Source: an uncultured bacterium | GTDB taxonomy: Bacteria; Patescibacteriota; Minisyncoccia; Phycocordibacterales; Phycocordibacteraceae | Assembly: GCA_947085505.1 (NCBI GenBank) | Contig: CAMTWI010000004.1 | Span: 1,800-65,799 of the forward strand | Length of the DNA: 64,000 nucleotides | Direction: 5' to 3' | Shown: in pieces, positions 17,147 through 48,323 of the stretch | Layout: every line of letters starts with the position of its first letter | How positions within the stretch are numbered: the stretch's first letter is position 1 | Notes under the pieces: generated by a model | What the model saw: the letters and a program-made list of their open reading frames with translations, nothing else | Told to the model about the DNA's origin: nothing | Databases searched by the model: none | Made by a program: the position numbers and the translations under genes

Positions 17147-17263
17147 GATTAGAATACGAGGCGCTCATATGTGACGGGTACTAGCTGCCTTTCGGTATGC
17201 CAGGGATAGCCCGCTCACGGCTTGTATACGCGCTCGCGATAGGGAAAAGCTATCATATATATA

Positions 17264-17299
17264 GGTAAAAAAGAAGCCCCCGCGTATTAGGCGGGGGCT
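17264..17299 (-). terminator. Intrinsic terminator at the left edge of the high-GC island
   Basis: Minus strand: GCCCCCGC-CTAATAC-GCGGGGGC followed by TTCTTTTTT. Confidence 0.7.
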
Positions 17300-17433
17300 G
17301 CTGATTATGACCCTTGCGGGTACGAGCCCTGGTGTTACTTCAGCCTTTGACTGAAGCTCGTCAGGGTGTCACGTCGGTCACCTCCATCGTAGCCATTGCG
17401 GGTTGCAGGCGTGCGCTCGGCGCCGCCCAGGGA

Positions 17434-17559
17434 TCAGGCCGCGGTGTTGATGCCGGCGGCGATGGTCGGCGGCGAGGCGGCCGGGGCGATCAGGATCATG
17501 GCGGCCATCAGGCCGGCGGAAAACTCAGAAGCAAGGGACTTGTTCGGCGGTCGCTGCAT
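17434..17559 (-). CDS. 41-aa hydrophobic/Pro-Ala-rich small ORF
   Basis: Not in the ORF track. Sequence MQRPPNKSLASEFSAGLMAAMILIAPAASPPTIAAGINTAA. SD GAGGAG lies 8 nt upstream. Has its own TTGACA promoter and a downstream terminator. Very GC-rich. Confidence 0.4.
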   Translation of the reverse strand: MQRPPNKSLASEFSAGLMAAMILIAPAASPPTIAAGINTAA

Positions 17560-17596
17560 TGGTGTTTCTCCTCTTGATGCAGGCTTGAACAGATGT

Positions 17597-17624
17597 AAGT
17601 TAACACACCCCAAAATATTGTCAA
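17597..17624 (-). promoter_or_regulatory. Sigma70-like promoter of the 41-aa ORF
   Basis: Minus strand: TATTGACA-N16-TAACTT. Confidence 0.5.
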
Positions 17625-17640
17625 TACTCTGTGGATATGT

Positions 17641-17681
17641 CGTAATAAAAGGAAAAGGCTCGGACCGAGTGGGTCCGAGCC
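17641..17681 (-). terminator. Intrinsic terminator after the 349-aa gene
   Basis: Minus strand: GGCTCGGACC-loop-GGTCCGAGCC followed by TTTTCCTTTTATT. Confidence 0.7.
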
Positions 17682-17707
17682 TGCCTCCTAAGAGGACTTA
17701 AAGGTTC

Positions 17708-18757
17708 TTACTTCTTCTTGTTCGACTTGCCTTTGAGGGACATGTCGGCCGAGGAACCCCGACGGGCCTGACGTTCGGCCTGGTCACGCTGCGAGCGCGC
17801 GGCCAGTTTGGCTTTGCGTGCAGGCGGCGGGCCTTTGGATCGAGTCGCCGACACCGTCGGCAGCGGGGTGCTCGTCACTTCGTTGACCGTCCCGCGCTTG
17901 GCGCAGGTGATCTTGAAGCGCAGGGCGTAGTCCGGCCGGTGCTGCAGTGCGTCGAGGACGTGCTGCTGCACACCTCGGCCCAGCAGGCCGCGATCACCGT
18001 CGTCCTCGAGCAGCTTGTAGGCCGCTTCGAAGACCGCGGGCGAACGCTTGCCGCCCACAGCCAGCACGGCGACGAGCTCGTGGTAGAGCTTGTCTTCCGC
18101 GCGGGTGCGCTGATCACCCTTCAGCTCCTCGCGCAGGCGCGCTTGGGACTGACGGATGTACAGGATGCGGATGTCAGCCACATCCTCGGTGCTGAGGTTC
18201 TTGATCTCGAGCGTGCCGTCGGTGTTGGCCAGCTTGCGGACGTTGCCGTCCGCGTACAGGATGTCGATGGACTCGCCGTCGGTGAGGCCGATCAGCATCT
18301 CGTCCTGGTAATTGGAGCTGGTCACGACGCTGCCGTCGGTGACGATCTTCGAGGAGAATGCCTCCTTGAACGTCGTACCCTTCGTGCGGGCGAACTTGGT
18401 GTCCACGTGCACGAGAACGGAATCGTCGGCCTTCATGCGCTGCCGGAGCAGCGGAAGCTGTCCGTCCTTGCCGGCCCAGCGGATGCTGGCGGCCCGGACG
18501 ATGTGGGCTTCGTTGATCGCGCACGGCTGGTGCGAATCAACCATGATGTAGCGTTTGCCGATGAACAGCGGCGGCTGGGTCTGCATCGAGGAATTGACGT
18601 TCAGGAGGAGACCCTCCTCGAGAACGCCTTCCAGGAAGCGGAAGCAGTTGGTGGCCGGCTGGACGATGCCCAGCTGCGGCGCCTTCAGACCCCGAAGGGA
18701 CTGGGCCGGGTGGGCAGCGACGAAGTCGATGTGGTCCTGGGTGTTTTCGGCGGACAT
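17708..18757 (-). CDS. Hypothetical 349-aa protein with basic C-terminal tail (high-GC island)
   Basis: Long ORF with a GC-rich third-position style unlike its neighbours. The C-terminus is lysine/arginine-rich (ARKAKLAARSQRDQAERQARR..KGKSNKKK). No recognisable domain. Confidence 0.6.
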   Translation of the reverse strand: MSAENTQDHIDFVAAHPAQSLRGLKAPQLGIVQPATNCFRFLEGVLEEGLLLNVNSSMQTQPPLFIGKRYIMVDSHQPCAINEAHIVRAASIRWAGKDGQLPLLRQRMKADDSVLVHVDTKFARTKGTTFKEAFSSKIVTDGSVVTSSNYQDEMLIGLTDGESIDILYADGNVRKLANTDGTLEIKNLSTEDVADIRILYIRQSQARLREELKGDQRTRAEDKLYHELVAVLAVGGKRSPAVFEAAYKLLEDDGDRGLLGRGVQQHVLDALQHRPDYALRFKITCAKRGTVNEVTSTPLPTVSATRSKGPPPARKAKLAARSQRDQAERQARRGSSADMSLKGKSNKKK

Positions 18758-18813
18758 GAGCAGTCCCTTTCAAGAATCTGAAGGATGCAAAAGCGCATAC
18801 CTTATCCTCTTTA

Positions 18814-18842
18814 ATACTATCATATACTATACATATTGTCAA
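18814..18842 (-). promoter_or_regulatory. Consensus sigma70 promoter of the 349-aa gene
   Basis: Minus strand: TATTGACA-N17-TAGTAT. A T8 tract (plus 18852-18859) sits in UP-element position. Confidence 0.6.
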
Positions 18843-18892
18843 TAGTATGGTAAAAAAAAGACCCACCCCAAAAGGGCAGGCGAGAAGGGAAA

Positions 18893-18955
18893 GAGCTGAC
18901 CCAATCTGGTGTCGGCAACCCGGAAGAACCGGCAGGAACCCAGATGGGTCAGCTC
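18893..18955. repeat. Long imperfect inverted repeat in the island's non-coding arm
   Basis: GAGCTGACCCAATCTGG ... CCAGATGGGTCAGCTC (16 bp, one bulge) enclosing CCGGAAGAACCGG. Confidence 0.6.
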
Positions 18956-19082
18956 TCCGCGCAGCGGCCAACGCGCGCTATAAGAGCCGTATCACTCAAG
19001 CCTCTATTGCGACGCGTATGGCCTGTGCACAGTCCTGACCTCCCTACCTACTCCCCTACAATTGCGGTATAATGAAGGGAAC

Positions 19083-19724
19083 ATGGTCATCACCCACCAC
19101 GGCGGGCAGTGCTTCAAGATCACCCAAGGCGACCTCACGATCGTCTTCGATCCTATATCCAAAGGAGGCTCGCTGCCTGCGGTTCGTTTTGGTGCGGATC
19201 TCGCACTCGTAACCCGAAAGCACACCGACATGAACGGAACCGATGAGGTCTCCTTCGGCGGTAAGGAACCATTTGTTATCGACGGGCCGGGCGAGTACGA
19301 ACATTCAGGTGTCAGGGTCCAGGGCTTCCTCACAAAAAGTCAGTACCAGCCAGTGAAGGGAGCTTTGGACGCAATTAATACCGTCTATGCTATTACCGTT
19401 GACGGCATGACCCTCGTACACCTCGGCGCGCTCTCAGACCCGATGCTTTCTCATGACGCGCGGGAAGCTATCGACGAGATCGATGTCCTCTTTGTGCCAG
19501 TGGGTGGCGCGGGTGTGCTTTCACCTGCTGAAGCCTCGAAGCTTGCAGTTACCCTGCAGCCGAAGATCATCATCCCAATGCACTGGTCGGGGATGGGCGA
19601 GGCAAAGTCCCTTGAGGCCTTCCTTGGAGACGACAGCAAGGACGTTGAGAAGGTAGACAAGCTTACCCTTAAGAAGAAGGATGCTGCAGAGAAAGACGGT
19701 GCTATCATCGTGATAACCCCCTAA
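19083..19724 (+). CDS. MBL-fold metal-dependent hydrolase (UPF0173-like)
   Basis: Start moved to ATG 19083 (MVITHHGGQCFKI) because TATAAT at 19067-19072 lies inside the longer ORF. LALVTRKHTDMNG and VPVGG motifs. Confidence 0.75.
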   Translation: MVITHHGGQCFKITQGDLTIVFDPISKGGSLPAVRFGADLALVTRKHTDMNGTDEVSFGGKEPFVIDGPGEYEHSGVRVQGFLTKSQYQPVKGALDAINTVYAITVDGMTLVHLGALSDPMLSHDAREAIDEIDVLFVPVGGAGVLSPAEASKLAVTLQPKIIIPMHWSGMGEAKSLEAFLGDDSKDVEKVDKLTLKKKDAAEKDGAIIVITP

Positions 19725-37983: not shown

Positions 37984-38012
37984 ACTCTATCCTAAGCGAT
38001 TTTTGCTGTCAA
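37984..38012 (-). promoter_or_regulatory. Consensus sigma70 promoter driving the candidate sRNA
   Basis: Minus strand: TATTGACA-N17-TAGAGT. Confidence 0.55.
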
Positions 38013-38040
38013 TACCCAAAAAGCAGGTTGGGGATAGCGG

Positions 38041-38067
38041 GCGGGCCCTGTGGGACGAGATTCGAAA
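38041..38067 (-). repeat. Pseudo-tRNA-3'-end element at the distal edge of the tRNA-Trp island
   Basis: Minus strand: TTTCGAATCTCGTCCCACAGGGCCCGC. T-loop-like TTCGAAT plus AGGGCCCGC, compared with the tRNA-Trp end TTCGATT..AGGCCCGC. 19/27 ungapped identity to the tRNA-Gln-locus repeat GTTCCAACATCGTCCCAGATTGCCAGC. Confidence 0.55.
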
Positions 38068-38090
38068 TATAATTCAGTTATAATAATGCA

Positions 38091-38993
38091 GTGAACACCA
38101 CTCTCATTCTCGAGGAGCTCTACTCAAAGGAGGAGATCGAAACTGCTTTCGATACTAATTTTGGTCCGCGCATAAAGGGTATTACTCAGCGACGTTCTTC
38201 AGATAATGAGCCATATATACTCATATTTGCTTCCGCTCGCGGCTCAATAGTGTACGGGGATAGGGTTGAGGGTAGGATTTTCTATTACAAGGGTGAGGGA
38301 TCAGACGGTGACCAGAAGCTTACAACCGCAAATAAGGCACTGATAAATTCAAATCTAAACAAGACACCCATCTTTGGTTTTCGTCAGCATGAGATTGGTG
38401 GCAAATACCAGTATCTTGGATTGGTATCGGTCCTTGAGTGGACCTATGCAGATTTCAATGGCAGAAAGGTGTATGAATTTAAATTCGAACAGGAGGGCTT
38501 AGAGAATCCTCTGCAAAGTACTAAAGAGTGGAATGAAATAAAGAACCAAAGTGAGCTTCCGGACCCATCCCTCACGGGAACGGGTGAAGTAGCTGTATCT
38601 ACTGTATCTAGCATAAAACGAAATGCAGCCTTTCCATTAAAGATTAAGGAGCAGTATCAGAATCGATGTGCTGTGTGTAGAAAATCACGGTGTACGGCTG
38701 CTGGGTACCCAGAGGTTCAGTCCGCCCATATATACCCAAAGGAGAAGAATGGAGCAGATGACTTAAGAAATGGCATAGCTCTATGCAGGCTTCATCACTG
38801 GGCTTTTGACGAGGGGCTGCTGGCTATTTCTGATGATTTAACTCTACTCGTTAACAATGCCATTACAAAGGATGAAGACTACGAAGAAATTAGCAAGTAC
38901 GCCGGAGTAGCTATCCTGCCTCCTCTGGACAAACGATATACACCGTTGCCACTTTTTCTGACAGAGCATAGAAAGCTACATGGGTTTGAGTAG
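38091..38993 (+). CDS. SRA(YDG)-like domain fused to HNH nuclease; putative modification-dependent (type IV) restriction enzyme
   Basis: 300 aa, GTG start. N-terminal YILIFASARG..FYYKGEGSDGDQKLTTANKALINS parallels the SRA motif Y.L...GGY....F.YTG.GG...DQKLT..N.AL. C-terminal CAVCRK..AHIYPK..NGIALCRLHHWAFD is HNH. Confidence 0.75.
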   Translation: MNTTLILEELYSKEEIETAFDTNFGPRIKGITQRRSSDNEPYILIFASARGSIVYGDRVEGRIFYYKGEGSDGDQKLTTANKALINSNLNKTPIFGFRQHEIGGKYQYLGLVSVLEWTYADFNGRKVYEFKFEQEGLENPLQSTKEWNEIKNQSELPDPSLTGTGEVAVSTVSSIKRNAAFPLKIKEQYQNRCAVCRKSRCTAAGYPEVQSAHIYPKEKNGADDLRNGIALCRLHHWAFDEGLLAISDDLTLLVNNAITKDEDYEEISKYAGVAILPPLDKRYTPLPLFLTEHRKLHGFE

Positions 38994-39083
38994 GTGTTGA
39001 TGAGTGCGAGTGCCCCCTAGGACAAGATTCAGCTTGCTTTAGAAGGGTATTGTGCCCCCAGGTACGAGTAGTATGATTCCTTC

Positions 39084-40088
39084 ATGAAGCTAAACTACGA
39101 AATAACGCCTGAGAATCTCAAGATTCTGGAAATCAAGCAAGTACTGCTGGATAAAGAGAAATTCGGTGCTCTTACGTTTGATCGGGCTTATTTACCTCTG
39201 CATGAGCTCAGGAAGATGTTTGTAGAGTTTCAAGAGCTCGACTACGCTTCTAAACTGGCTCCTGACGAAGTGCAAGAAGTGGAAAACTACAAGAATCAAC
39301 TTCTTGACTATGTTCGCCGAGTTCACTCAATAGATCCTACTACTGATCCTACTTTTAATACGAATGTTCGTGAGAATTTAGAAAATGAAATAATAAGTTT
39401 TTGTCAGCGAGTGAGTAAGGTTTTGAGAAACAACCTTGTCTATCTTAGACAGGAGCTTGCTCTTAGGAATCAGGACCAGCAAAGCTTAGCTGAAGAACAA
39501 AAAGCTACTGTGCAAGCGAGGAAGCAGGCAGAAGAAACGTTAAGTCAACTACAAGCAAAGCTTGAGGAACTAACTAGTAGAGAGCAGCAGCTCGAAAACA
39601 AATCAGGCGAGTTTGGTGCGAAGGCTCTCGGAATTCATTTTGGTACCGAGACAGATAACTATTCGGATGTAGCTAATAAGTGGTTTGTTGCCTCAATCGT
39701 TGCCTATCTTTTTCTTGTTTTCATCGTAATTGGTATAGGAATCTATTACAGTTTTTTCCATGGCGGCGGCTGGGAAACTCTTACGTGGCAGGAGGGAACC
39801 GCAAAGCTCTTTCTCTTTGCGGCTCTATGGTACGGATTAACCTTCATTACACGAAACTACAATGTAAATTCACATCTTGCTGCTGTAAATCGGCATCGTG
39901 CAGCAGTCGCTAAAACTCTCGAAGATTTCCTTGCTTCAAGTCCATCTGCTACTGGTGAAATGTTGAAGAATGGTACAGAAGCCATGTTTCGGCATGTAGC
40001 GATCGGTTTCATAACGAAAGCCGAAAAGGATTCTGGAAACCCTCTTCTTGAAGTCGTGAATAAGGTGGTGAATCCAAAAGGGGAATAA
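39084..40088 (+). CDS. Coiled-coil protein with C-terminal double-TM domain (unknown function)
   Basis: 334 aa. Heptad-rich QQSLAEEQKATVQARKQAEETLSQLQAKLEELTSREQQLE, then WFVASIVAYLFLVFIVIGIGIYY and LFLFAALWYGLTFI helices. Confidence 0.55.
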   Translation: MKLNYEITPENLKILEIKQVLLDKEKFGALTFDRAYLPLHELRKMFVEFQELDYASKLAPDEVQEVENYKNQLLDYVRRVHSIDPTTDPTFNTNVRENLENEIISFCQRVSKVLRNNLVYLRQELALRNQDQQSLAEEQKATVQARKQAEETLSQLQAKLEELTSREQQLENKSGEFGAKALGIHFGTETDNYSDVANKWFVASIVAYLFLVFIVIGIGIYYSFFHGGGWETLTWQEGTAKLFLFAALWYGLTFITRNYNVNSHLAAVNRHRAAVAKTLEDFLASSPSATGEMLKNGTEAMFRHVAIGFITKAEKDSGNPLLEVVNKVVNPKGE

Positions 40089-40203
40089 AATCAAAGGATA
40101 CGGTTGATTTCAAAATGATTCAGACCGTATGGAATGAGATAAAATTAGGTTACGGCTCCACACATCGTTTAAAATTTTAGGTAAACCAACTTTTCAATCA
40201 TCT

Positions 40204-40770
40204 TTAGGACAAAGAGTCTTTGGGGGTTGCAAGTTTTATATAGTCTAGCAATCGGTACTGATCTATAAGTTCAATCGGCTTGTCTTCAGCAAACTTTCTA
40301 GCTTCAAGAGTGAATCCTGCAGTAGTGATGAAATAGGCTTGCCCGTTTGCTAGGCGACCTGCTATAGCCCCGTAGAAATCTCTAATAGCTGACACCGGCA
40401 CCTGTCGAGTGATGTATCTCTTGCACTGAATATAGTTTGTAACACCGTTTTTCGTGGCAATCACATCAATCCCACCGTCGTAAGATTTTCCGACCGCTTC
40501 AGCCTGATACCCAAGTTGTATAAAAAGCTCAGCAATATAATCCTCGAACTCTTTAGGACTCATGCCCCGTATCCACTGGATAAGATCTCTATCAGATCTC
40601 CATTGCGCACCAGCCTTGAACTGCCGCTTGTTCCTCCATGAGCGATAGAGATCAGGTAAAACGACTTCGACCAGTACCCGAAGAACAAGCATTCCGAACA
40701 CGAAGACAATAAGCCATCCGAACACGGGTGAAAGCATTTCCACAATAGGATTGCTCGGAAAGATATCCAT
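40204..40770 (-). CDS. Membrane-anchored Mrr-like restriction endonuclease
   Basis: 188 aa. N-terminal TM (FGWLIVFVFGMLVLRVLV). FEDYIAELFIQLGY..DGGIDVIA...IQCKRY..V..IRDFYGA..FITTAGFT matches the Mrr_cat D-(Q/E)xK core (recalled). Confidence 0.8.
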   Translation of the reverse strand: MDIFPSNPIVEMLSPVFGWLIVFVFGMLVLRVLVEVVLPDLYRSWRNKRQFKAGAQWRSDRDLIQWIRGMSPKEFEDYIAELFIQLGYQAEAVGKSYDGGIDVIATKNGVTNYIQCKRYITRQVPVSAIRDFYGAIAGRLANGQAYFITTAGFTLEARKFAEDKPIELIDQYRLLDYIKLATPKDSLS

Positions 40771-40773
40771 TTC

Positions 40774-40974
40774 TTAAATACTATCACTCGGGCGTGCCTG
40801 CGTTTGAGGCTCTTCGGATAAGGCATCATAGAGCCTGGCCAAAGATCCTAAGAAAAGCTGAGCCTCGCCGGGAGAAACTTCAAGGTCGTAACTATTCTGG
40901 AAATAAGTGATCAGCCTTGTTTCCAAGCTTTTAGAAAACTTAAAATCAGAAGAGACGCTCTCTACAGTCCTCAT
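40774..40974 (-). CDS. Small hypothetical protein, paralog of 42340..42537
   Basis: Start moved to ATG 40974 (66 aa). LETRLITYFQNSYDLEVSPGEAQLFLGSLARLYDAL aligns with ELTNRTIAYYLGRGESISPETAQEYLRDMSSLYGSF. Confidence 0.4.
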   Translation of the reverse strand: MRTVESVSSDFKFSKSLETRLITYFQNSYDLEVSPGEAQLFLGSLARLYDALSEEPQTQARPSDSI

Positions 40975-41311
40975 ATACAAAAGTCTTTTGAGCCTCTGAA
41001 CTACACTTTGACCACTTGATATAATCCCCGTCAAAAGTGCCACAAGTACTCTGCGTGTGTGTTCCCATGGCAATACCCATTTCAGTAAGGCAGTCTCCGT
41101 ATGCTTTCATTTTAGTGTCCTGCGCTTTCATGGCTCTAATATTTGCTTCCTTCTGCGCGGCTTGCTGTTCAGGAGTTGGATTCGCACGCTGTACGGCCTG
41201 CTGGTGTACCTGAACGTCTTTCTGAGGCAGATAATAGCCGTAGTAATAACCAACAGAAATACCTCCTATTATCACGGCTAGGAGTGCAATCGGATCGAGG
41301 AAATTCTTCAT
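40946..41311 (-). CDS. Hypothetical membrane-anchored protein
   Basis: 121 aa. N-terminal TM (IALLAVIIGGISVGYYYGYY). Gln/Ala-rich linker and a Cys-containing C-terminus. Confidence 0.45.
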   Translation of the reverse strand: MKNFLDPIALLAVIIGGISVGYYYGYYLPQKDVQVHQQAVQRANPTPEQQAAQKEANIRAMKAQDTKMKAYGDCLTEMGIAMGTHTQSTCGTFDGDYIKWSKCSSEAQKTFVYEDCRERLF

Positions 41312-41340
41312 GGTCAGTAGGGGGACTGACCTCCCCTCAG

Positions 41341-41562
41341 TTATTTGAGGAAATAAGAAATATCTTTCTTGTAGATCTTGGCAAAGCGCTGAAGTTCTAT
41401 GACATCAACACGTTGTTGTCCCGACTCTACATTTGAGATATGCGACTGAGGCCTGTCGAGTTTCTTGGCAACTTCAGTCTGGGTCAGTCCTGCATCAAGG
41501 CGAGCCTTTCTAAGACGCTCGACAAAAACGGCATATTCCTTGGTATGAACTGACTTCTTCAT
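41341..41562 (-). CDS. XRE-family helix-turn-helix regulator
   Basis: 73 aa. RLRKARLDAGLTQTEVAKKLDRPQSHISNVESGQQRVDVIEL is a canonical HTH_3. Confidence 0.85.
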   Translation of the reverse strand: MKKSVHTKEYAVFVERLRKARLDAGLTQTEVAKKLDRPQSHISNVESGQQRVDVIELQRFAKIYKKDISYFLK

Positions 41563-41589
41563 ACACTAGAGCGTGTATCCAAGAAGTCA

Positions 41590-41608
41590 ATATCCAAATT
41601 ATGGATAT
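41590..41608. promoter_or_regulatory. Candidate operator palindrome in the divergent XRE intergenic region
   Basis: ATATCCA-AATTA-TGGATAT, a perfect 7-bp inverted repeat between divergent genes. Confidence 0.5.
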
Positions 41609-41653
41609 CGGTGGCAATTCGTAAAACAAGCGCTTTAGGTATATTCTTCGGCC

Positions 41654-42295
41654 ATGAGTCCAGAGGTAAGAAAGACCCTAGAGATTGTTTGTGCCGCAAT
41701 GCCTACTCGGCGTCAAGACGAGGAGTCTGATTTTTATTCGGTTCTCCTTACAGAGAAAGATTTTAAAAGGCAGGATCTAAGTATTGATGCTGGAGTCGCT
41801 GCGCTTAAGCATCTGGCTAGTACTGGTTCTGCTTTTGTCGAGGTTGGAAACATTTATGAAGCATCAATTGAAAACTTCGATGACCCTACGTTGGATGGGG
41901 AGCATTGTGTCGACATTTATGTTCACTCCTCTGTTCACCTAGAGCTGTTTGGAGGGTCTTCCATACCTGAGACAAAACCTACTTTTAGCTTTAGTGAAAA
42001 TATTCTAAAAGTAAATAGTCAGGACATATTATTTGGATCAATTGATGCAAAGGAAAAGGGAGCATATATATTGCAGTACATATTCGAGCATGATCTATCA
42101 GAACCTTCTGATTACAATGAAATACATGATCGTTTCTTTTTCGATGATCCAAGTTCTGGTTTTGGGAAAAGATTATACGAGGCATGCCGGATCATACGGC
42201 AAAGAGTTTTTGATATTTCCGGTGTGCGGGACTTTCTAATTTTTAACTCAAGCGACAAGGGCTCTGTAAGGATTAATCCTAAATATCTACCGTAG
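41654..42295 (+). CDS. Hypothetical protein (element-borne)
   Basis: 213-aa ORF divergent from the XRE gene. No motif recognised. Confidence 0.5.
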   Translation: MSPEVRKTLEIVCAAMPTRRQDEESDFYSVLLTEKDFKRQDLSIDAGVAALKHLASTGSAFVEVGNIYEASIENFDDPTLDGEHCVDIYVHSSVHLELFGGSSIPETKPTFSFSENILKVNSQDILFGSIDAKEKGAYILQYIFEHDLSEPSDYNEIHDRFFFDDPSSGFGKRLYEACRIIRQRVFDISGVRDFLIFNSSDKGSVRINPKYLP

Positions 42296-42339
42296 CTATA
42301 CGGTAGGATACCGTACGCCAAATTTTCTAAGCTCCCTTA

Positions 42340-42537
42340 GTGGAGCCTTTTTCATTTAGCCCAGAACTCACAAACCGCACTATTGCCTATTACTTGGGTC
42401 GTGGTGAATCCATATCTCCTGAAACAGCCCAGGAGTATTTAAGGGATATGTCGAGCCTCTACGGGTCGTTTATGGCGTTTGCGGACGTGCAGGAGGGGAA
42501 GGCGGCAGCGGCTTCAGCCGCGCCGTCGCACCCCTGA
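42340..42537 (+). CDS. Small hypothetical protein, paralog of 40774..40974
   Basis: 65 aa. Shared pattern L..R.I.Y(F/Y)......(V/I)SP(G/E).AQ.(F/Y)L...(A/S).LY. Confidence 0.4.
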   Translation: MEPFSFSPELTNRTIAYYLGRGESISPETAQEYLRDMSSLYGSFMAFADVQEGKAAAASAAPSHP

Positions 42538-42577
42538 CTTGATAAATAGCACATACAAGACACATACGAGATGAATC

Positions 42578-43351
42578 ATGGGATACACAAAAATTATTCA
42601 GTCAGGAGATCTAATCGAAAAATATGAGTACGAAAAACCTCCGCCCGAGCGTGTGCCTCGAAAGGTTAAGCCGGGGCGTATCGCTCCGTGGTCCGATCAA
42701 CTTACCGAAGAAAGGAGAGCAGATTGCATACACAAGAGACGAATATCAAGCATTAATCGTTGCCGCCAGTCGTTTTTCCGTCTCGTACGAGCGAATCTAC
42801 ACGCGGGCGCTCCCATCCTGCTCACACTCACAATGCTGGATATCGTGGACCTCAGAACTGCATACGCTTGCTACCACGAATTCGGACAAAGGCTGCGTCG
42901 AATTATCGGAAAGAATACTTCTTGGATTGCTGTGCCGGAGTTTCAGAAAAGGGATGCCGTACATTTCCATGTTCTGATCTGGAATCTACCCCATGAATAC
43001 ATTGAAACCGAACCAGACACCCGTCGAATTCAGAATCTCTGGAGAGCCGGTTATGTTGATCTTGTTCAGACAGACGGTTCGCCTAAGCTTGCTACCTACC
43101 TCGCAAAGTACATGTCCAAAGCGATGCAGGACCCTCGGCTCCTGGGACAAAAAGCGTATAGTGCTAGTCGGAATATATTGCGCCCGGTGTCGTTCAACAC
43201 TCAAACGTCGGTTAACACTGCTTGTGAGGTCTGGGGCATAACTGACGAGACAAAGCCAGAGTATGATCGGGAATTCGACACAAAGTGGATGGGGAAATGT
43301 CGCTATACTTCCTATTCTATCCAAAATATAGATAATGCTAAGGACGCATGA
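42578..43351 (+). CDS. HUH-type rolling-circle replication initiator (Rep)
   Basis: 257 aa. AVHFHVLIWN is the HUH motif and ATYLAKYMSK the Y-x-x-K-Y catalytic Tyr motif, as in small ssDNA phage/plasmid Reps. Confidence 0.7.
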   Translation: MGYTKIIQSGDLIEKYEYEKPPPERVPRKVKPGRIAPWSDQLTEERRADCIHKRRISSINRCRQSFFRLVRANLHAGAPILLTLTMLDIVDLRTAYACYHEFGQRLRRIIGKNTSWIAVPEFQKRDAVHFHVLIWNLPHEYIETEPDTRRIQNLWRAGYVDLVQTDGSPKLATYLAKYMSKAMQDPRLLGQKAYSASRNILRPVSFNTQTSVNTACEVWGITDETKPEYDREFDTKWMGKCRYTSYSIQNIDNAKDA

Positions 43352-44811
43352 AATACATTCTCTACTGTCGAAAATCTACGGATAACGAAGATAAGCAAGT
43401 CCTCTCACTCGATTCCCAGAAGATCGAGCTAGAACGTCTTGCTGAGCGTGAAGGTATAGAGATTGTTGCGACACTTACTGAAAGCCGGTCTGCAAAGGAG
43501 CCGGGTCGTCCCGTCTTCAATGAACTTATGCACCGAATCGCATCCGGTGAGGCCGATGCGGTTCTCTGTTGGAAAATAGATCGCCTTACTCGAAATCCTG
43601 TAGACGGTGGACAAATCCAATGGCTTCTCCAAAAAGGTTTGATCAAATCTATTCGGACCTTTGAACGAAGCTACAGCCCTTCTGACAATGTGCTGCTCAT
43701 GAGTATTGAACAGGCAATGGCTACTCAGTACCTTCGGGATCTGTCTGAGAATGTTAAACGCGGGAATAGAACCAAATTGGAACGAGGAGAGTGGCCAAGC
43801 TACGCACCTTTTGGCTACAAGAATGACAGGGTAAACAAAACTATTCTCGTAGATGAGAATCGCGCTCCTTATATTCGTCGGGCGTTTGAGCTATATGCAA
43901 CAGGTGGGTATGGCCTGAACCAAGTGGTAGAGATTCTTTATAGTGAGGGTTTCAGATCAAAGACTGGAGGCAAGGTTTTTAAGAACCAGATACATCATTT
44001 CCTAAATAGCCGTTTTTATATTGGCCTTATGGAAAGACAGGGAAAACTCTACCAGGGGAAGCATGAACCTCTTGTTTCTCAAGCTACGTTTGATCGAGTT
44101 CAAGAAGTGCTGCACGGAAGACTTCGTCCTTGCATGAAAAAGCATTTCTATTCTGCGCGCGGGTTCCTTAAATGCGAACTCTGCGGATGCATGATCACTG
44201 CTACTACCGCTAAGGGCCGGAAGTATTACTACTGCACAAATGGTAAGGGAAATTGCGGGGCCCACAAGAAATACCTAACTGAGGAAAAAACAGATCTTCT
44301 TGTCTCAAAACTCTTTTCCGAACTGGATATGGATGAGGAATTCATATTGCTCTGCGCGCAAGCCTTTCGAGAGGAGCACGGAAGTACCTCAACATATGAG
44401 GATCTACGTCCTGCAACTATCCAAAAGGAACTGGACGCTCTCGCTCTCAAAGAATCTCGCCTTACCGATTCCATGGCCTCTGGGGTCCTCAAAATGGAGC
44501 TGTACGAAGAGAAAATGCGTGAGATCGAGAATGGACGAACAGAACTCAAATCCCAGCTAAAAAGTATCGAAAATGAGAAGGGGGCCAATGCTACTTTCGA
44601 ACAGGTTCTAGATGTGTTTCTAGAAAGCAGTAGAGCCGCCAAACGATATTTGGAGGTTGATGAACAGGAAAAACGAAAGATGCTCGAAAAACTACTTTCG
44701 AACGCCTCTATCCTTGGAGAAGAAACGGCTTACTTTAAGTTTAAAAGTCCTTATCAGGCACTAGCTCTAGCACCTAAAAACAGGGATTTTCAAATGATGC
44801 GGGCCTACTAG
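43348..44811 (+). CDS. Large serine recombinase
   Basis: 487 aa. N-terminal resolvase catalytic domain (ILYCRKSTDNEDKQVLSLDSQ..CWKIDRLTRN), recombinase domain, Cys zinc-ribbon (CELCGC..YYYCTNGKGNC), C-terminal coiled coil. The 3' end overlaps tRNA-Trp. Confidence 0.9.
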   Translation: MKYILYCRKSTDNEDKQVLSLDSQKIELERLAEREGIEIVATLTESRSAKEPGRPVFNELMHRIASGEADAVLCWKIDRLTRNPVDGGQIQWLLQKGLIKSIRTFERSYSPSDNVLLMSIEQAMATQYLRDLSENVKRGNRTKLERGEWPSYAPFGYKNDRVNKTILVDENRAPYIRRAFELYATGGYGLNQVVEILYSEGFRSKTGGKVFKNQIHHFLNSRFYIGLMERQGKLYQGKHEPLVSQATFDRVQEVLHGRLRPCMKKHFYSARGFLKCELCGCMITATTAKGRKYYYCTNGKGNCGAHKKYLTEEKTDLLVSKLFSELDMDEEFILLCAQAFREEHGSTSTYEDLRPATIQKELDALALKESRLTDSMASGVLKMELYEEKMREIENGRTELKSQLKSIENEKGANATFEQVLDVFLESSRAAKRYLEVDEQEKRKMLEKLLSNASILGEETAYFKFKSPYQALALAPKNRDFQMMRAY

Positions 44812-44870
44812 GAATCGAACCTAGGACGTCGGTTTTGGAGACCGAAGTTATACCATTTAACTATAGACCC
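44800..44870 (-). tRNA. tRNA-Trp (CCA)
   Basis: Minus strand: GGGTCTATAGTTAAATGGTATAACTTCGGTCTCCAAAACCGACGTCCTAGGTTCGATTCCTAGTAGGCCCG. Anticodon loop CTCCAAA. Confidence 0.9.
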
Positions 44871-44948
44871 GGTATTGCCCACGATACCAGATACAGGGGT
44901 AGTGGAAAAGAACCCGTAATTAGAGCGTGCGCGGGATACAATCACTCT

Positions 44949-45983
44949 ATGAAAAGGCTCCTAGCCCCGCTCCTCCTTTTGTTCGTGCTCTTCATACCGT
45001 TTGCTGTGAGTGCACAATCGAATCTCCCACTCTTTGATCCGGACTGGCAGCTCGTGCCGGATGCACACAAGATTGATCCAGAGAACTGTCCTGAAGGGTA
45101 TCCTCTTGGATTTGCAGGAGTGTTGCAGCTCATACAAAACGGCATGAACGCGGCGATATCATTCGGCGTTATTATTTTTGTTTTGATTATCGCGGGCGCT
45201 GGTATCCTCTGGATTCTTACCCCAACGAATCCCGAGAATCATTCACAAGCAAAGAAGATTCTCACGAATGCGGTTATTGGTCTCCTGATTATTCTTTCAG
45301 CGTGGCTTATCGTTGATTTCGTTATGAAGCTTCTCTACAACCCTAACGCTCGTAATTTCGGTCCCTGGAATCAAATTCTTACCGGAGGAGACCTCTGCAT
45401 TAAGCCGATGGAGAATCTTCAACCTCTGTTTAGTGGGAATATTTTCTCAGTTCCAGGACGAGGAACTGGTGCCGATAGTGGAGGACCCGCAAGTCTCGGT
45501 AGTGGGTCTTGTTCTCCAACACTCATAAGCAATGCAGCATACATGGGAGGATACCCTCTTACGCAAGCTCAGGCGAATACGTTTTCCTGTCTGGCACAAG
45601 CAGAAAGCTCTTGCGGCACCAATATTTCAGGAGCCAAGACAGTTGATGGAAGACCAACAACTGCACACGGCATGTTCCAGATCGTCATGGGGTATAACGA
45701 CAAGTGTCATAATTTGAATGTTACGGTGTGTTCTTCAGCTGCAAGGAATGCTGGCTGGCGAGGATCAGGGGATTTAAATTGCTCGCAGGCATTTTCAGGA
45801 GGTAGAGTTAAGCAGGGTCAGGAAGAGCTTGCGCGAGTCTGTAGAGCAGCAGCAGCGAATATTGTTTGTAATGTCTCAGCTGCCGCATGCCTTCTTAAGG
45901 AGCGGCCTGATTTCGGCGACTGGACATCGGACCCCCGAAGTACGAGACAGAAAGCATGCATTGCTACCTTTTCTGGCCAATAA
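44949..45983 (+). CDS. Pilin-like (TrbC/VirB2-like) module fused to a lytic-transglycosylase-like domain
   Basis: Start moved to ATG 44949 (signal peptide MKRLLAPLLLLFVLFIPFAVSAQS). Two TM helices with ..ILTNAVIGLLIILSAWLIVDFVMKLLYN. C-terminal CLAQAESSCG...AHGMFQI resembles the SLT E-S...G(L/M)(M/F)Q(I/V) motifs. Confidence 0.6.
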   Translation: MKRLLAPLLLLFVLFIPFAVSAQSNLPLFDPDWQLVPDAHKIDPENCPEGYPLGFAGVLQLIQNGMNAAISFGVIIFVLIIAGAGILWILTPTNPENHSQAKKILTNAVIGLLIILSAWLIVDFVMKLLYNPNARNFGPWNQILTGGDLCIKPMENLQPLFSGNIFSVPGRGTGADSGGPASLGSGSCSPTLISNAAYMGGYPLTQAQANTFSCLAQAESSCGTNISGAKTVDGRPTTAHGMFQIVMGYNDKCHNLNVTVCSSAARNAGWRGSGDLNCSQAFSGGRVKQGQEELARVCRAAAANIVCNVSAAACLLKERPDFGDWTSDPRSTRQKACIATFSGQ

Positions 45984-45986
45984 TAT

Positions 45987-46562
45987 ATGAATATGAACTG
46001 GAAAATAATTCTTGCCTCTATTTTTCTCATACTCGGTCTTGCAACCATACTTATTACTGCATTCTTAATGCTAGATACTTCACCAAGGCAGTCTATCGAA
46101 GAGTCCCCTCAGGTTCTGTTTCCAACGAGCGGGGTGTTCGAGGCTACGGATTCTACAGGGAGACTTACACTAACGGGTGAAAGTGGTGAACCCATAACTG
46201 TAAAAGATTTTATTCGTAACGGTGAGACCGTTACTGACACTGTGAATCCTGGATCTTTCGTACTTGCTGGAAGTGTTGGTTATTGCTTGGAGGACGGATC
46301 ATGTCCTGAGGGTGCAAACACCGATAATTTCTCCATTACCTACAATAACGAGATTCAATCGTTCAATATTGTTCTACTTGCAGAGCCTCTTAGAAGATCC
46401 AGGGAGGCATCTGAGCGCTTTCTCATTGAAAGGCTCGGTCTTTCACAAGAGGATCTATGCAGACTGAACTACAATCTAGGAGTTCCTTATTTCGTAAATG
46501 AGCAATTCGCTGGTCAGAACCTACGGTTTAGTTTCTGCAAGGATGCTATCGTTCTACCATAG
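45987..46562 (+). CDS. Hypothetical membrane-anchored protein
   Basis: 191 aa. N-terminal TM (ILASIFLILGLATILITAFLML). Lies between the two pilin-hydrolase fusions. Confidence 0.5.
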   Translation: MNMNWKIILASIFLILGLATILITAFLMLDTSPRQSIEESPQVLFPTSGVFEATDSTGRLTLTGESGEPITVKDFIRNGETVTDTVNPGSFVLAGSVGYCLEDGSCPEGANTDNFSITYNNEIQSFNIVLLAEPLRRSREASERFLIERLGLSQEDLCRLNYNLGVPYFVNEQFAGQNLRFSFCKDAIVLP

Positions 46563-46566
46563 GTAT

Positions 46567-47481
46567 ATGAAAAGAATATTTTTACTCGTTCTAGGATTCT
46601 CCCTACTTCTACCCCTTTCTGTAGAAGCGCAGTTCGGTCCCATAGTGCCTGAAGTGTGCCGCACGTGCGCGTGTGGATTTGGTGGAGTGCTTGCTATTGT
46701 GCAAAATGTCGTCAATTTCATGATCGGTATAGCGATTATTTTCGCCACTATCATCATGGTATGGGCAGGAGGTCTCTACATACTTTCTGCAGCTAATCCT
46801 GAAAGCCGTAGTACGGCAAACAAAATGCTCATCAATGCGGTTATAGGTCTTCTGATTGTTCTGTCTGCGTGGCTAATTGTCGACTTTGTTATGAAGACGC
46901 TTTATAACAACGGCAGCGAATTCGGTCCATGGAACTCCATCCTGCTTGGTGGTTCAGGAGACAGCTGTGTAGTGGCGAAGCCAACGACACCACTTTTTAG
47001 TGGAAATATCCTTGCTGTGCCTGGAATGGGAACGGGGAGTGAAAACACAGGAGCGAGCGGTACTGTGGAGCTTGCTGGGGGCTGTACGGGTACGGGTACA
47101 AATTCAACGTGCTCTCGTTTGCCAAGTAATGTTGTATGTGAGGCGAGAGGCTGTTATGCAGATGCAGGGTTGGCAGCAGCGCTGGGTAATATCCGCAGCA
47201 GTGTAGGATGGGCTGTTACAGAAGGGTACCCAAAATCTCGATCCCATCGTGCAGCATGTCACTCAAATGGAACATGTGTTGATGTAGGTCTTCGTCCTAG
47301 AAATTACACCATAGAAAATATTATTGCATTTGACACTGCAGCTAAGGCAGCTGGTTTACGACCCGTTTACGAGGAGAAAGAGGACAGAGATTTCGTCGAA
47401 CAACTCAAGAGAAGAGGGGTGAATGCAATTTTCTTAGGCGATCACATTAGTGCTGATCACTTCTCTGTCTACGCTAATTAA
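46567..47481 (+). CDS. Pilin-like module fused to a putative zinc D,D-peptidase (M15/hedgehog-fold-like) domain
   Basis: Start moved to ATG 46567. N-terminal ~130 aa are paralogous to 44949.. (MLINAVIGLLIVLSAWLIVDFVMKTLYN, GPWNSILLGG, PLFSGNI). C-terminal SRSHRAACHSNGTCVDVG ... ADHFSV resembles H-x-x-G-x-x-x-D ... H zinc ligands. Confidence 0.55.
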   Translation: MKRIFLLVLGFSLLLPLSVEAQFGPIVPEVCRTCACGFGGVLAIVQNVVNFMIGIAIIFATIIMVWAGGLYILSAANPESRSTANKMLINAVIGLLIVLSAWLIVDFVMKTLYNNGSEFGPWNSILLGGSGDSCVVAKPTTPLFSGNILAVPGMGTGSENTGASGTVELAGGCTGTGTNSTCSRLPSNVVCEARGCYADAGLAAALGNIRSSVGWAVTEGYPKSRSHRAACHSNGTCVDVGLRPRNYTIENIIAFDTAAKAAGLRPVYEEKEDRDFVEQLKRRGVNAIFLGDHISADHFSVYAN

Positions 47482-48323
47482 TAGTGTTCTTGTCTCAATT
47501 TGCGTAACCACCCTTTTTGGTGTCTGGCGTAATGCCAAACCTTTGTCGAAAGAGAATCAAGAAGCGTGTCCTCACTTCGTTCGTTACGAAGGAATTCTCC
47601 AACGATTTTGTATTCAAGACCGAGCTCGTTGAGGCGCTCGTCTCTCACGTATTCACGTACGCGTTGTACCTCTTCAATGAGACCGTTCTCGAGCGCCCTT
47701 GAAAGACGTGTCCTGATGCGGGATCGAAGTTCGTCTCGCTCTGGGTTGAGAATTACCCACTCAACAGGGAACCGGGCTTCAGTTGCATCGCGTTCAGGTA
47801 CCTTGCCGTGCGTTTCAATTATTTCAAGTGCTCTAACAAGCCTTCGTTTGTTTAAAGGATCAATGCGCTCTGCACGGCGCGGATCCTTAGCGCGTATCTC
47901 TTCCATAAGAGAATCAGTACTGCGCTTTTCAAGTTCTTTTCGAAGATCTGCATTTGGTTCGGTTTCTTCAGGTAGACCATACAGAAGTGCATCAAAGTAG
48001 AAATGGGTGCCACCAGCCAGAATAGGGCGTTTGCCGCGACCGCGGATCTCTTCGATAAGTCGTTCCGCGTCCTTCACAAAGTCTCCAGCACTATAGGTTT
48101 CTTTTGGATCCCGGATGTCGATAAGATGGTGCGGGATGCCATCCATCTCCTCTTTAGAGGTCTTCTCCGTGCCAATATCGAGCATTCGGTATACCTGTCG
48201 GGAGTCGACAGAGATAACTTCGCCGTTAAATTCTTTTGCGAGTGCTACGGCACGCGCAGACTTGCCCGAGGCAGTTGGGCCGGCAACACACAGTATGGGG
48301 GAAGGGTCATCCACGTGGCTCAC
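47478..48323 (-). CDS. miaA: tRNA dimethylallyltransferase
   Basis: 281 aa. VAGPTASGKSARAVALA P-loop, SVDSRQVYRMLDIGTEK, GGTHFYFDALL. Confidence 0.9.
   Translation of the reverse strand: MSHVDDPSPILCVAGPTASGKSARAVALAKEFNGEVISVDSRQVYRMLDIGTEKTSKEEMDGIPHHLIDIRDPKETYSAGDFVKDAERLIEEIRGRGKRPILAGGTHFYFDALLYGLPEETEPNADLRKELEKRSTDSLMEEIRAKDPRRAERIDPLNKRRLVRALEIIETHGKVPERDATEARFPVEWVILNPERDELRSRIRTRLSRALENGLIEEVQRVREYVRDERLNELGLEYKIVGEFLRNERSEDTLLDSLSTKVWHYARHQKGWLRKLRQEHY

Follow-up and report, generated by a model that had tools for sequence, protein, structure and literature searches.

A compositionally deviant gene family, a candidate structured RNA and small-peptide genes in a variable spacer beside rpsA of Paceibacterota

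The spacer between a Lactamase_B_3 hydrolase gene and rpsA holds an island of three minus-strand transcription units (Table 1). The window, i.e. the whole stretch of DNA analysed, is 64 kb in length, and the neighbours of the island in it are the hydrolase, a 126-aa protein, gyrA, rpsA, a Nudix-like protein and Pth. Loci of relatives carry L numbers. The original prediction recognized two of the units, a 349-aa gene and a small-peptide gene (unit B); the third (unit A) is an RNA candidate of ~190 nt with its own terminator. Each of the three units ends in its own terminator, and promoters have been identified for the 349-aa gene and the peptide ORF only. The borders are as bare as was first described: there is no tRNA gene within 10 kb, there is no recombinase among the neighbouring genes, and the sole repeats are duplicated promoter and terminator modules. 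At the gathering score, Rfam finds only tRNAs in the whole window, and at E ≤ 10 the region 17150-19150 shows terminator-like noise only; the counterparts in relatives have zero Rfam matches. The two non-coding stretches were considered as tmRNA, RNase P, SRP or 6S RNA and these assignments were rejected, as ARAGORN and Rfam (gathering score and E ≤ 10) were both empty.

Table 1. Features of the island between the hydrolase gene and rpsA, and of the adjoining rpsA leader
Feature	Position	Strand	Basis or remarks
Lactamase_B_3 hydrolase gene and rpsA			divergently transcribed pair bracketing the island
Unit A, ~190-nt conserved structured RNA candidate	18852-19040	-	covariance model, covariation
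Unit A palindrome	about 19022-19031	-	
Unit A long-hairpin arms, perfect	18892-18903 and 18945-18956	-	
Unit A intrinsic terminator and T8 run	18881-18861	-	terminator scan
349-aa gene, promoter (TTGACA, 17-nt spacer, TAGTAT, TG before -10)	18814-18842	-	promoter scan
349-aa gene, 5′ UTR	18758-18807	-	GAAAGG Shine-Dalgarno; hairpin drawable near 5′ end
349-aa gene, CDS	17708-18757	-	349 aa, GC3 0.86
349-aa gene, intrinsic terminator	17656-17682	-	terminator scan; 11-bp stem, then T-rich tail
Unit B promoter module	17597-17645	-	read from sequence
Unit B 41-aa ORF	17434-17559	-	hypervariable small-protein family of the island
Unit B 3′ region, small-ORF stop to terminator	17300-17433	-	conserved, possibly structured
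Unit B intrinsic terminator	17266-17299	-	terminator scan
rpsA promoter and conserved structured 5′ leader	17147-17262	-	adjoins the island, not part of it

Unit A comprises a palindrome (CTGTGCACAG), a short GC hairpin, a long hairpin and an intrinsic terminator. A 16-bp inverted repeat had been described here; the repeat is present, its perfect arms are 12 nt long, and they lie inside a longer helix. A covariance model built from 8 relatives scores the window stretch at 184.6 bits and finds 12 loci in total, with or without the 349-aa gene. In unit A, 93% of cells are paired compared with 40–49% in slid controls, and double changes are found in 21 of the 34 pairs; the observed values were reached by 0 of 500 shuffles. 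Conserved G-U pairs, located at the base of the helix and within the terminator, can form on the minus strand only. Rfam has no match to unit A and no convincing promoter candidate was found for it, and it is presented as a candidate small structured RNA. The T8 run that was initially read as an UP-like tract of the next promoter is in fact the tail of the unit A terminator.

The promoter proposed for the 349-aa gene was recovered; it matches 10 of 12 and is kept in relatives. The arrangement TTCTTGAAAGG-N8-ATG upstream of the gene is kept in six relatives; in the window, a further ATG ahead of it, at 18798, is not in frame with the gene. The hairpin near the 5′ end of the leader can be drawn in each of six relatives with zero compensatory changes, and is not claimed. 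A terminator was expected after the ORF and is found there, preceded by a small conserved hairpin (CCTCTTAGGAGG). This terminator module is conserved in relatives, and it persists in L015 though the gene is replaced. A distant member of the gene family in another context (L095) is likewise bracketed by a consensus promoter and a terminator. Throughout the family, the gene comes with a near-consensus sigma-70 promoter, a Shine-Dalgarno sequence and a strong terminator. In the window, the exact TATTGACAAT motif is found at the promoters of the 349-aa gene and unit B only; thus the proposal that the promoters are host-style or native cannot be asserted. In relatives, the promoters move with their units. 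The companion proposal of a cassette that supplies the promoter fits, as promoters and terminators accompany the units in all the relatives.

Unit B has a module that consists of an upstream element (ATTACGACATATCCACAGAG), TTGACA (17624-17619), a 16-nt spacer and TAACTT (17602-17597) preceded by TGT, in agreement with the promoter first proposed. The module is kept in L001, L003, L005, L011, L015–L018, L020, L022 and others. The 41-aa ORF (MQRPPNKSLASEFSAGLMAAMILIAPAASPPTIAAGINTAA) has its ATG at 17559 with GAGGAG upstream, as would be expected of the Shine-Dalgarno sequence ascribed to it. In relatives, ORFs of 34–135 aa are found behind the unit B promoter, many with signal peptides, and these have PPGH[IV]G or C-terminal [AG]GH motifs in common. 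The 5′ end of the window ORF resembles L011 and the 3′ end resembles L001; judged by this resemblance, the ORF is a mosaic or a truncated copy. The 3′ region is almost identical in L001, whose adjacent 349-aa protein is 46% identical, and it is recognizable in L016, with variable hairpin insertions. The RNAalifold structure of this region is weak and tentative, with three distinct sequences only. The terminator GCCCCCGC..GCGGGGGC with its T-run was confirmed at 17299-17275, and in Rfam it yields only weak matches, to terminator-like parts of unrelated families.

The structured 5′ leader of rpsA lies outside the island. It was detected by nhmmer in 41 loci, compensatory CG<->UA changes occur in its consensus stem (24 sequences), and it matches no Rfam family.

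The 349-aa protein had been termed an ORFan, but its family comprises, at 50% identity, at least 131 clusters. The family has no profile match in Pfam, PHROG, NCBIfam or PADLOC, and PADLOC and PHROG are also empty for four distant members and for the ORF that replaces the gene in L015. Pattern scans of GTDB genomes and of viral contigs gave nothing that could be confirmed, a word-indexed protein search with a 58-sequence profile added zero annotated relatives, and a literature search on abundant unknown Patescibacteria proteins or CPR codon usage found nothing relevant. The AlphaFold model of the protein is confident (pLDDT 85.6). It predicts a disordered N-terminus, a beta-rich domain at ~35–187 and a five-helix bundle at 190–289, followed by a conserved basic helix at 312–332 and a Lys-rich tail. 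Neither model has fold neighbours in the PDB or BFVD at E ≤ 1e-3. Nearly invariant positions across 58 members are Gly, Val and Arg only. Conserved catalytic-type residues are absent and the basic C-terminal helix and tail are conserved, which makes an abundant, non-enzymatic protein with a structural or nucleic-acid-binding role the likeliest reading.

A resemblance to ribosomal protein bS21 was also considered. The C-terminal stretch (RFKITCAKRG ... KGPPPARKAKLAARSQRD) aligns to S21 chains, and the gene adjoins rpsA. However, the match to solved S21 chains is non-significant in a profile search (E = 1.7), Pfam S21 (Ribosomal_S21) misses eight isolated C-terminal tails even at E ≤ 10, and conservation of the first aligned motif (RFKITCAKRG) does not extend through the family. 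The idea of an N-terminal extension joined to a bS21 domain is thus unsupported.

The segment was originally described as strongly GC-rich over 1.8 kb. Its outlier composition stands, but its extent does not. The spacer has 59.8% GC versus 54.4% in the flanks, with 51.7% for the window overall, so the excess is moderate at the DNA level; most of it is in the 349-aa CDS, which has 64.6% GC (the peak of 300-nt windows is 0.687). GC1/GC2/GC3 values of this ORF are 0.65/0.43/0.86. The mean GC3 of 57 ORFs in the window is 0.54 (sd 0.095), which places the 349-aa ORF at a z of ~3.4, and no second sizeable ORF in the 64 kb shares its GC3-rich signature. The anomaly is genuine, yet nearly confined to the 349-aa gene.

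The codon usage of the gene is equally deviant. CTG provides 57% of its Leu codons versus a background of 5–9%. Against a housekeeping set of rpsA, ftsZ, gyrA, infB, clpB and prx (no ribosomal-protein or EF-Tu genes being counted in the window), CTG stands at 57% vs 4%, GCC at 57% vs 18%, CCG at 86% vs 34% and GTC at 48% vs 18%. NNC codons make up 79–100% in two-fold families and Ile, and GGG, GGA and CCC are avoided. The codon shift of the gene correlates with that of the window housekeeping set (r = 0.65); two-fold NNC usage agrees, but the four-fold choices (CTG, GCC, CCG, GTC) differ.

In its usage of CTG, GCC, CCG, GGC, CGC and ATC the gene is similar to typical high-GC bacteria and unlike all neighbours, and with respect to many relatives it is an accessory gene. 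Both observations are in keeping with the idea, put forward in the original prediction, of a recent transfer from an unrelated high-GC organism (a host or a partner) and a later capture of native promoters. This idea is now barely credible. Some of the relatives carry the gene, with its own promoter, in this very slot at 37–91% protein identity, and pairwise distances give the same grouping for gene and flanks, i.e. window, L011 and L006 vs L001 and L003. All homologues with a context that was read lie in Paceibacterota-type housekeeping neighbourhoods; among these contexts, none is a high-GC contig with matching neighbours. Viral contigs have no matches to the family, and mobility genes, tRNAs and border repeats are all absent from the locus. 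In addition, GC3 of the family is above that of its neighbours in 12 of 12 independent loci, with CTG and GCC also higher in most (CTG in nine of the nine loci tested). The 12 loci cover other contexts (L013, L014, L095), genomes of 43–63% GC and members at 20–25% identity. The GC excess is therefore most likely a property of the family and not the trace of a foreign donor.

Outside this slot, members of the family are found with argS-ileS-recO, dnaG-rpoD-uvrD or glycolysis genes, in settings that appear to be stable. These are of importance for a second explanation, GC-biased gene conversion in a recombination hotspot, whereby AT-to-GC changes would become fixed at silent sites of all island ORFs. 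The small island ORFs of relatives are also GC3-rich (0.82–0.92), the region is mosaic and variable in presence/absence, and G- and C-ending codons are enriched alike, all of which favour conversion. Nevertheless, it is improbable: the same excess is seen in the stable contexts, GGG and CCC are avoided and not enriched, and the replacement ORF of L015 is at background GC3 (0.78 vs 0.75–0.83). Synonymous divergence speaks against it as well, in that a conversion hotspot with divergent partners is not expected to lower dS. The dS of the 349-aa gene is 0.19 between the window and L011 and 0.28 between the window and L006, which is 3.5–6 times below that of the flanks; hydrolase, gyrA, pth and p126 show values of 0.94–1.24, and rpsA, whose product is a known abundant protein, is intermediate (0.38–0.49). 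The dN/dS of the gene is 0.26–0.62 vs 0.02–0.20 in the flanks, and at the protein level it is the fastest-evolving gene of the neighbourhood.

A strongly depressed dS together with a high dN/dS might also point to dual use of the sequence, i.e. an antisense gene or an embedded structured or regulatory RNA that would account for both the synonymous constraint and the GC-richness. In line with this, the codon-complement antisense frame is fully open in the window and in close relatives. No stops arise in it, as the CDS is devoid of TTA, CTA and TCA codons, and it stays open in synonymous shuffles; thus codon usage fully explains the open frame. The long opposite-strand ORFs were correctly judged spurious from the start, and a 280-aa plus-strand ORF was rejected as an antisense gene, being an artefact of composition. 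The antisense frame is broken in distant family members and interrupted in L007, L009 and L012–L014, Rfam has no match above noise within the CDS, and in the sense frame the codon positions follow the classic GC1 > GC2 << GC3 order and the fold is predicted with confidence. Dual use is very improbable.

The segment had been called an insertion, and this is borne out in a deep-time sense. The hydrolase-rpsA spacer varies from 114 to 3007 nt in about 85 Paceibacterota loci, and in about ten more distant Paceibacterota the two genes are just 114–200 nt apart. Across species, the spacer contains the structured RNA and, in addition, the 349-aa gene or a different ORF with a basic tail, together with one to three small genes for GH-motif peptides. 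The order hydrolase, 349-aa gene, small ORF and rpsA is found in L001, L003, L005/6, L007, L009, L010/11, L012, L026 and L045. A misassembly, raised earlier as a possible artefact, is excluded by several independent assemblies that show the same arrangement.

The closest GTDB representatives (L015–L019) lack the gene in this slot; they are as close as the carriers, which comprise L001, L003, L005–L011 and others. In L015 the slot is filled by an unrelated ORF and homology resumes directly past the stop codon; this 126/136-aa ORF is not a truncated copy of the gene (hhalign probability 0.6%). Between the window and L011, the promoter-gene-terminator block has 90–92% identity (92% for the gene), units A and B have 65% and 63%, and gyrA and hydrolase 84%, a mosaic that could also reflect recombination. 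Perhaps, then, cassettes are repeatedly exchanged among related Paceibacterota by homologous recombination at conserved module boundaries, and the composition and low dS would mark a recent arrival from GC-richer sister donors. The hypervariable spacer, the absences, the L015 replacement, the identity mosaic and the chimeric (L011-like and L001-like) 41-aa ORF all favour such an exchange, and sister genomes with a GC3 of about 0.8 do exist (L003, L015). However, the excess in GC3, CTG and GCC persists in GC-rich relatives when these are compared with their own neighbours; in L003 the gene has a GC3 of 0.89 vs 0.83 for neighbours, and CTG is at 0.53 vs 0.18. The same excess is found in distant members elsewhere, and therefore a GC-rich sister donor fails to explain the codon pattern. 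The common grouping of gene and flanks also counts against exchange, and an independent recent arrival at all 12 loci is unparsimonious. As an account of the anomaly, cassette exchange is rather unlikely.

The explanation that is preferred, and considered moderately probable, is that of a resident accessory island of a Paceibacterota (Kaiserbacteria-like) lineage, in which the 349-aa gene is probably highly expressed and under synonymous-site selection. The gene would be very highly expressed as a monocistronic unit, and selection on its synonymous sites would hold its codons in place, while the GC3 of the genome background drifted widely and the protein evolved fast. Several aspects count against this explanation. 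The codon dialect is no mere exaggeration of rpsA, ftsZ, gyrA, infB, clpB and prx usage. Highly expressed proteins usually evolve slowly, and the fast evolution of this protein is contrary to that norm. The gene is also patchy, missing at the slot in L015–L019, and its identity to L011 is mosaic.

A bolder version may be looked at as speculative and distinctly unlikely. The family might be Paceibacterota-wide and extremely abundant, with an unseen fold and a ‘private’ codon dialect (CTG, GCC, CCG, GTC, NNC) kept by selection at the mRNA level, with mRNA stability, the evasion of an AU-directed RNase and a dedicated control of translation as candidates. If true, this would be a natural example of gene-specific codon usage kept over deep divergence, with a new small structured RNA and hypervariable, secreted GH-motif peptides encoded alongside it in the island.

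It should be pointed out that composition-based detection of transfer is risky in Candidate Phyla Radiation genomes, where background GC3 shifts fast: gyrA has a GC3 of 0.62 in the window and 0.83 in a relative with a 97% identical gyrA protein. Here, a strong compositional outlier turns out to be resident in its lineage, with a deviant codon usage that holds steady across the family. The locus offers several leads, i.e. an unannotated family of at least 131 clusters with sequence signs of very high expression, the ~190-nt RNA, the rpsA leader and the small peptides. Should the 349-aa protein be abundant, it would make an obvious object of metaproteomic and structural studies in organisms not yet cultured alone.

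In the classical E. coli/Salmonella pattern, highly expressed genes are strongly biased in their codons and change slowly at synonymous sites. The 349-aa gene resembles such genes in its near-consensus promoter, Shine-Dalgarno sequence GAAAGG, own terminator and monocistronic arrangement, in its extreme preference for C-ending two-fold codons, and in a dS several-fold under that of its neighbours, with rpsA in between. It differs from them in four-fold choices (CTG, GCC, CCG, GTC) that are unlike those of window housekeeping genes, in a fast-evolving protein (dN/dS 0.26–0.62), and in that the gene is dispensable at the slot in close relatives.

The island shares with horizontally acquired islands a composition and codon outlier that lies between conserved housekeeping genes and is variable in presence/absence. 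In contrast to those islands, it lacks an integrase, a tRNA and flanking repeats, a donor lineage could not be found, the anomaly is family-wide (12 of 12 loci), and the distances are grouped like those of the flanks. There is also a likeness to phage morons: the units have their own intrinsic terminators (with a sigma-70-type promoter for the 349-aa gene and unit B) and deviant composition, and alternative genes can take the same slot, as in L015. However, the surroundings are core chromosomal genes and not a prophage, and the 349-aa gene has neither a PHROG match nor a relative on viral contigs. Lastly, as in hotspots of variation between core genes, a fixed pair, hydrolase and rpsA, brackets a spacer of variable length and content; but instead of mobile-element genes, this spacer holds small stand-alone units that reuse promoter and terminator modules.

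The compositional anomaly between the hydrolase gene (Lactamase_B_3) and rpsA resides in one gene. In 300-nt windows, 17700–18750 has 0.61–0.69 GC vs 0.50–0.58 on both sides; the whole window has 51.7% GC. The excess is concentrated in the open reading frame of the 349-aa protein (its family is termed fam349), which has 64.6% GC and GC1/GC2/GC3 values of 0.65/0.43/0.86. Mean GC3 over 57 ORFs of the window is 0.54 (sd 0.095), which places this ORF 3.4 sd away, and among sizeable ORFs of the 64 kb its composition signature is unique. The original observation of a GC-rich outlier holds up in substance. It had called the long ORFs on both strands spurious, and so they are: synonymous shuffles leave the antisense frame open, the codon-complement antisense frame is stop-free because fam349 uses no TTA, CTA or TCA, and this frame is broken in more distant homologues.

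On the minus strand, the order from hydrolase to rpsA is unit A (a structured RNA candidate), the fam349 gene, unit B (a small-peptide ORF with promoter module and terminator) and the rpsA leader. Of the architecture proposed earlier, the two units with both promoters and both terminators are confirmed in position, and unit A is added as a third. The supposed T8 UP-like tract belongs to a third terminator as its tail, and this terminator forms only on the minus strand because its stem has four G-U pairs. The exact TATTGACAAT motif does not occur in the window beyond the two island promoters, which makes them specific to the island rather than, as had been thought, demonstrably native. For the stand-alone unit near 62 kb, Rfam at E ≤ 1 gives only noise.

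Features of the island and of other parts of the window
Feature	Position	Strand	Description
Unit A	19040–18852	-	~190 nt, no ORF; CTGTGCACAG palindrome, short GC hairpin, long hairpin; ends in terminator
Unit A long hairpin, perfect arms	18892–18903, 18945–18956	-
Third terminator	18881–18861	-
fam349 promoter		-	TTGACA-17-TAGTAT, TG before
fam349 leader		-	50 nt, ends TTCTTGAAAGG-N8-ATG
fam349 gene	17708–18757	-	349 aa
fam349 3′ end		-	small hairpin, then 11-bp terminator
Unit B promoter module		-	conserved, 50 nt, ATTACGACATATCCACAGAG-TATTGACA-N16-TAACTT
Unit B ORF	17559–17434	-	41 aa, after Shine-Dalgarno sequence
Unit B 3′ region		-	~135 nt conserved non-coding, then GCCCCCGC/GCGGGGGC terminator
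rpsA promoter and 5′ leader	17147–17262	-	conserved, structured; leader of 115 nt
Hydrolase TATAAT box	19068–19073
Hydrolase ORF, listed start	19062	+	TTG
Hydrolase, probable conserved start	19083	+	ATG
Stand-alone unit	~62030–62313	-	TATTGACAGT promoter-like site, ~260 nt without ORF, GC hairpin and T-run
GC-poorer 10 kb	38000–48000		43–48% GC vs ~52% elsewhere in window; ORFs with GC3 0.34–0.48

Relatives that carry fam349 share the order gyrA, 126-aa gene and hydrolase on one side, divergent from fam349, a small ORF and rpsA on the other (loci L001, L003 and L005/6, with 46%, 53% and 81% identity to the window's fam349; further carriers are L007, L009 and L010/11, with 49%, 38% and 91%). 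Several independent assemblies have this arrangement, and a chimeric assembly is therefore ruled out. Among GTDB species representatives, a scan anchored on rpsA gave 80 Paceibacterota loci. All keep the gyrA-hydrolase/rpsA backbone, and the distance from the hydrolase start codon to that of rpsA varies between 114 and 3007 nt; about ten species, among the more distant ones, have just 114–200 nt. Only three of the 80 (L026, L045, L087) have a fam349 homologue in the spacer. The closest GTDB representative, L015, has a 98% identical rpsA and has unit A. Its fam349 slot is occupied by an unrelated ORF of 126/136 aa, Arg-rich and basic in its tail and preceded by a strong TTGACA promoter of its own (L015:3760–5000; hhalign gives a probability of 0.6% for a relationship to fam349). 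Right past the stop codon, homology to the window resumes: the CCTCTT.GGAGG hairpin with the terminator module comes first, and unit B next. The L016 and L017 spacers have units A and B only, and L018 and L022 have several small ORFs. Differing contents with common modules therefore define a lineage-specific, hypervariable island of stand-alone units with reusable promoters and terminators, where fam349 is an accessory occupant. Distant fam349 members are likewise stand-alone in other housekeeping neighbourhoods: beside ABC transporter and glycolysis genes (L013), in argS-ileS-recO (L014 and contig P0090) and in dnaG-rpoD-uvrD (L095, with a perfect TTGACA-17-TATAAT promoter and a strong terminator).

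In all 12 loci examined, fam349 GC3 is above that of its neighbours. In the nine loci tabulated for codons, CTG per Leu is 3–10 times and GCC per Ala 2–5 times higher than in neighbours. The trait persists across 20–25% identity, different contexts and host GC of 43–63%, and therefore does not bear the mark of a single recent donor. A recent foreign insertion, as first proposed, is not supported, given the family-wide GC3 excess across contexts and the same slot in relatives. The codon dialect matches other housekeeping genes of the window in part; the window has no ribosomal-protein or EF-Tu genes, and the organism's optimal codon set may differ. The two-fold-family NNC shift agrees (r = 0.65 overall), but four-fold choices in fam349 differ from those of the housekeeping set: 57% vs 4% for CTG (Leu), 57% vs 18% for GCC (Ala), 86% vs 34% for CCG (Pro) and 48% vs 18% for GTC (Val).

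GC3 of fam349 and neighbouring genes
Locus	fam349	Neighbours
Window	0.86	0.60
L001	0.83	0.69
L003	0.89	0.83
L005	0.84	0.64
L007	0.82	0.72
L009	0.82	0.54
L012	0.79	0.52
L013	0.57	0.37
L014	0.76	0.45
L026	0.81	0.53
L045	0.76	0.63
L095	0.69	0.43–0.56

Substitution rates between the window and two relatives
Pair	Gene	dS	dN/dS
Window-L011	fam349	0.19	0.26
Window-L011	hydrolase	0.98	0.044
Window-L011	gyrA	1.24	0.019
Window-L011	pth	0.95	0.064
Window-L011	126-aa gene	1.09	0.120
Window-L011	rpsA	0.49	0.036
Window-L006	fam349	0.28	0.41
Window-L006	hydrolase, 126-aa gene	~0.95	0.025–0.110

By dS, fam349 silent sites are 3.5–6 times more tightly held than those of its neighbours, and tighter even than those of rpsA, whereas the protein evolves several times faster (dN/dS 0.26–0.62 vs 0.02–0.20 in flanking genes). 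Base composition shifts rapidly within the clade, as indicated by flank dS of about 1 and by large GC3 differences among genomes (window, L015, L003, L011) with 92–98% identical gyrA and rpsA proteins; gyrA GC3 is 0.62 in the window and 0.83 in L015 despite 97% identical proteins. The simplest account is selection on synonymous sites, which would have stayed put as the genome background drifted. Recombination does reshape the island, as shown by the patchy presence of fam349, its replacement in L015, the window-L011 mosaic (92% identity in fam349, 65% in unit A, 63% in unit B and 84% in gyrA and hydrolase) and a chimeric 41-aa ORF. For the closest pair, these make cassette exchange from GC-richer sister lineages possible, but fam349 distances group like those of the flanks, and exchange leaves unexplained why fam349 is an outlier within GC-rich relatives and in other contexts. 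GC-biased gene conversion could also enrich GC, but is weakened by the avoidance of GGG and CCC in fam349, its low dS and the same kind of excess in members in stable contexts. With synonymous-site selection, the near-consensus promoter, Shine-Dalgarno sequence, terminator and monocistronic layout point to a gene predicted to be very highly expressed.

A covariance model of unit A, built from eight sequences, matches 12 loci, at all of which unit A lies directly upstream of the hydrolase start, with or without fam349. This position, seen in the window and in L001, L003, L005/6, L011, L015–L017, L021, L023 and L024, ties unit A to the hydrolase end of the spacer. The inverted repeat noted originally is real and forms its long hairpin. 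Pairing reaches 93% of cells vs 40–49% with partners slid, double changes occur in 21 of 34 pairs, and none of 500 shuffles attains these values. The terminator and the conserved G-U pairs point to the minus strand; no promoter was found for the unit. Such comparisons make unit A a good candidate as a new small RNA. Alternatively or additionally, the palindrome, ~50 nt upstream of the TATAAT box, may be an operator of the divergent hydrolase promoter. The probable ATG start of the hydrolase is just 9 nt past this invariant box, so that its transcript may have a very short leader or none.

Behind the conserved unit B promoter module, relatives encode peptides of 34–135 aa, many with signal peptides, and with common PPGH[IV]G or C-terminal [AG]GH motifs. 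Islands have one to three such stand-alone ORFs, rich in Gly, Asp, Ser and Ala; signal peptides are frequent, and PPGH[IV]G or C-terminal [AG]GH[IV]xP motifs are common to them (spacers include L009, L012, L015–L020, L022, L026, L033, L039, L041, L042, L053 and L094). They constitute an undescribed hypervariable small-protein family. The window's 41-aa ORF combines a signal-peptide half like that of L011 with a C-terminus like that of L001, has lost the His and may be degenerate. The unit B 3′ region is near-identical in L001, its structure being drawn from three sequences only. The rpsA leader, with core GCCGyGAGCGGGCU, a variable GNRA-capped hairpin and AGUACCCGyCrC, is found by nhmmer in 41 Paceibacterota loci, with CG<->UA compensatory changes in 24 sequences. 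It has no Rfam match and may be an S1 autoregulatory leader.

The 349-aa protein has no match in Pfam, PHROG, NCBIfam or PADLOC. It is not the ORFan it was taken for: a word-indexed search gives 10 close relatives (46–100% identity, one from a ‘Candidatus Paceibacterota’ MAG), and 1.84 billion cluster representatives, searched with a profile, give 131 clusters at E ≤ 1e-3, 28 of them at E ≤ 1e-30, most ~350 aa. The family is a widespread, uncharacterised one of Paceibacterota; its codon usage is specific to the gene, and the rate at its silent sites is tightly constrained. An AlphaFold model (58-sequence alignment, pLDDT 85.6) predicts a disordered N-terminus (residues 1–30), a beta-rich domain (~35–187), a five-helix bundle (190–289) and linker, a conserved basic helix (312–332, KGPPxxRRAKLAARxxRDRxxR) and a Gly/Ser/Lys tail. 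A likeness of the tail to ribosomal protein bS21 was rejected (E = 1.7, a failed direct Pfam test and a motif not conserved in the family). Across 58 members, near-invariance is limited to Gly, Val and Arg positions, which argues against an enzyme. With moderate confidence, the product is predicted to be an abundant non-enzymatic structural or nucleic-acid-binding protein. The rapid protein evolution of fam349 fits this poorly, being unusual in abundant cytoplasmic proteins.
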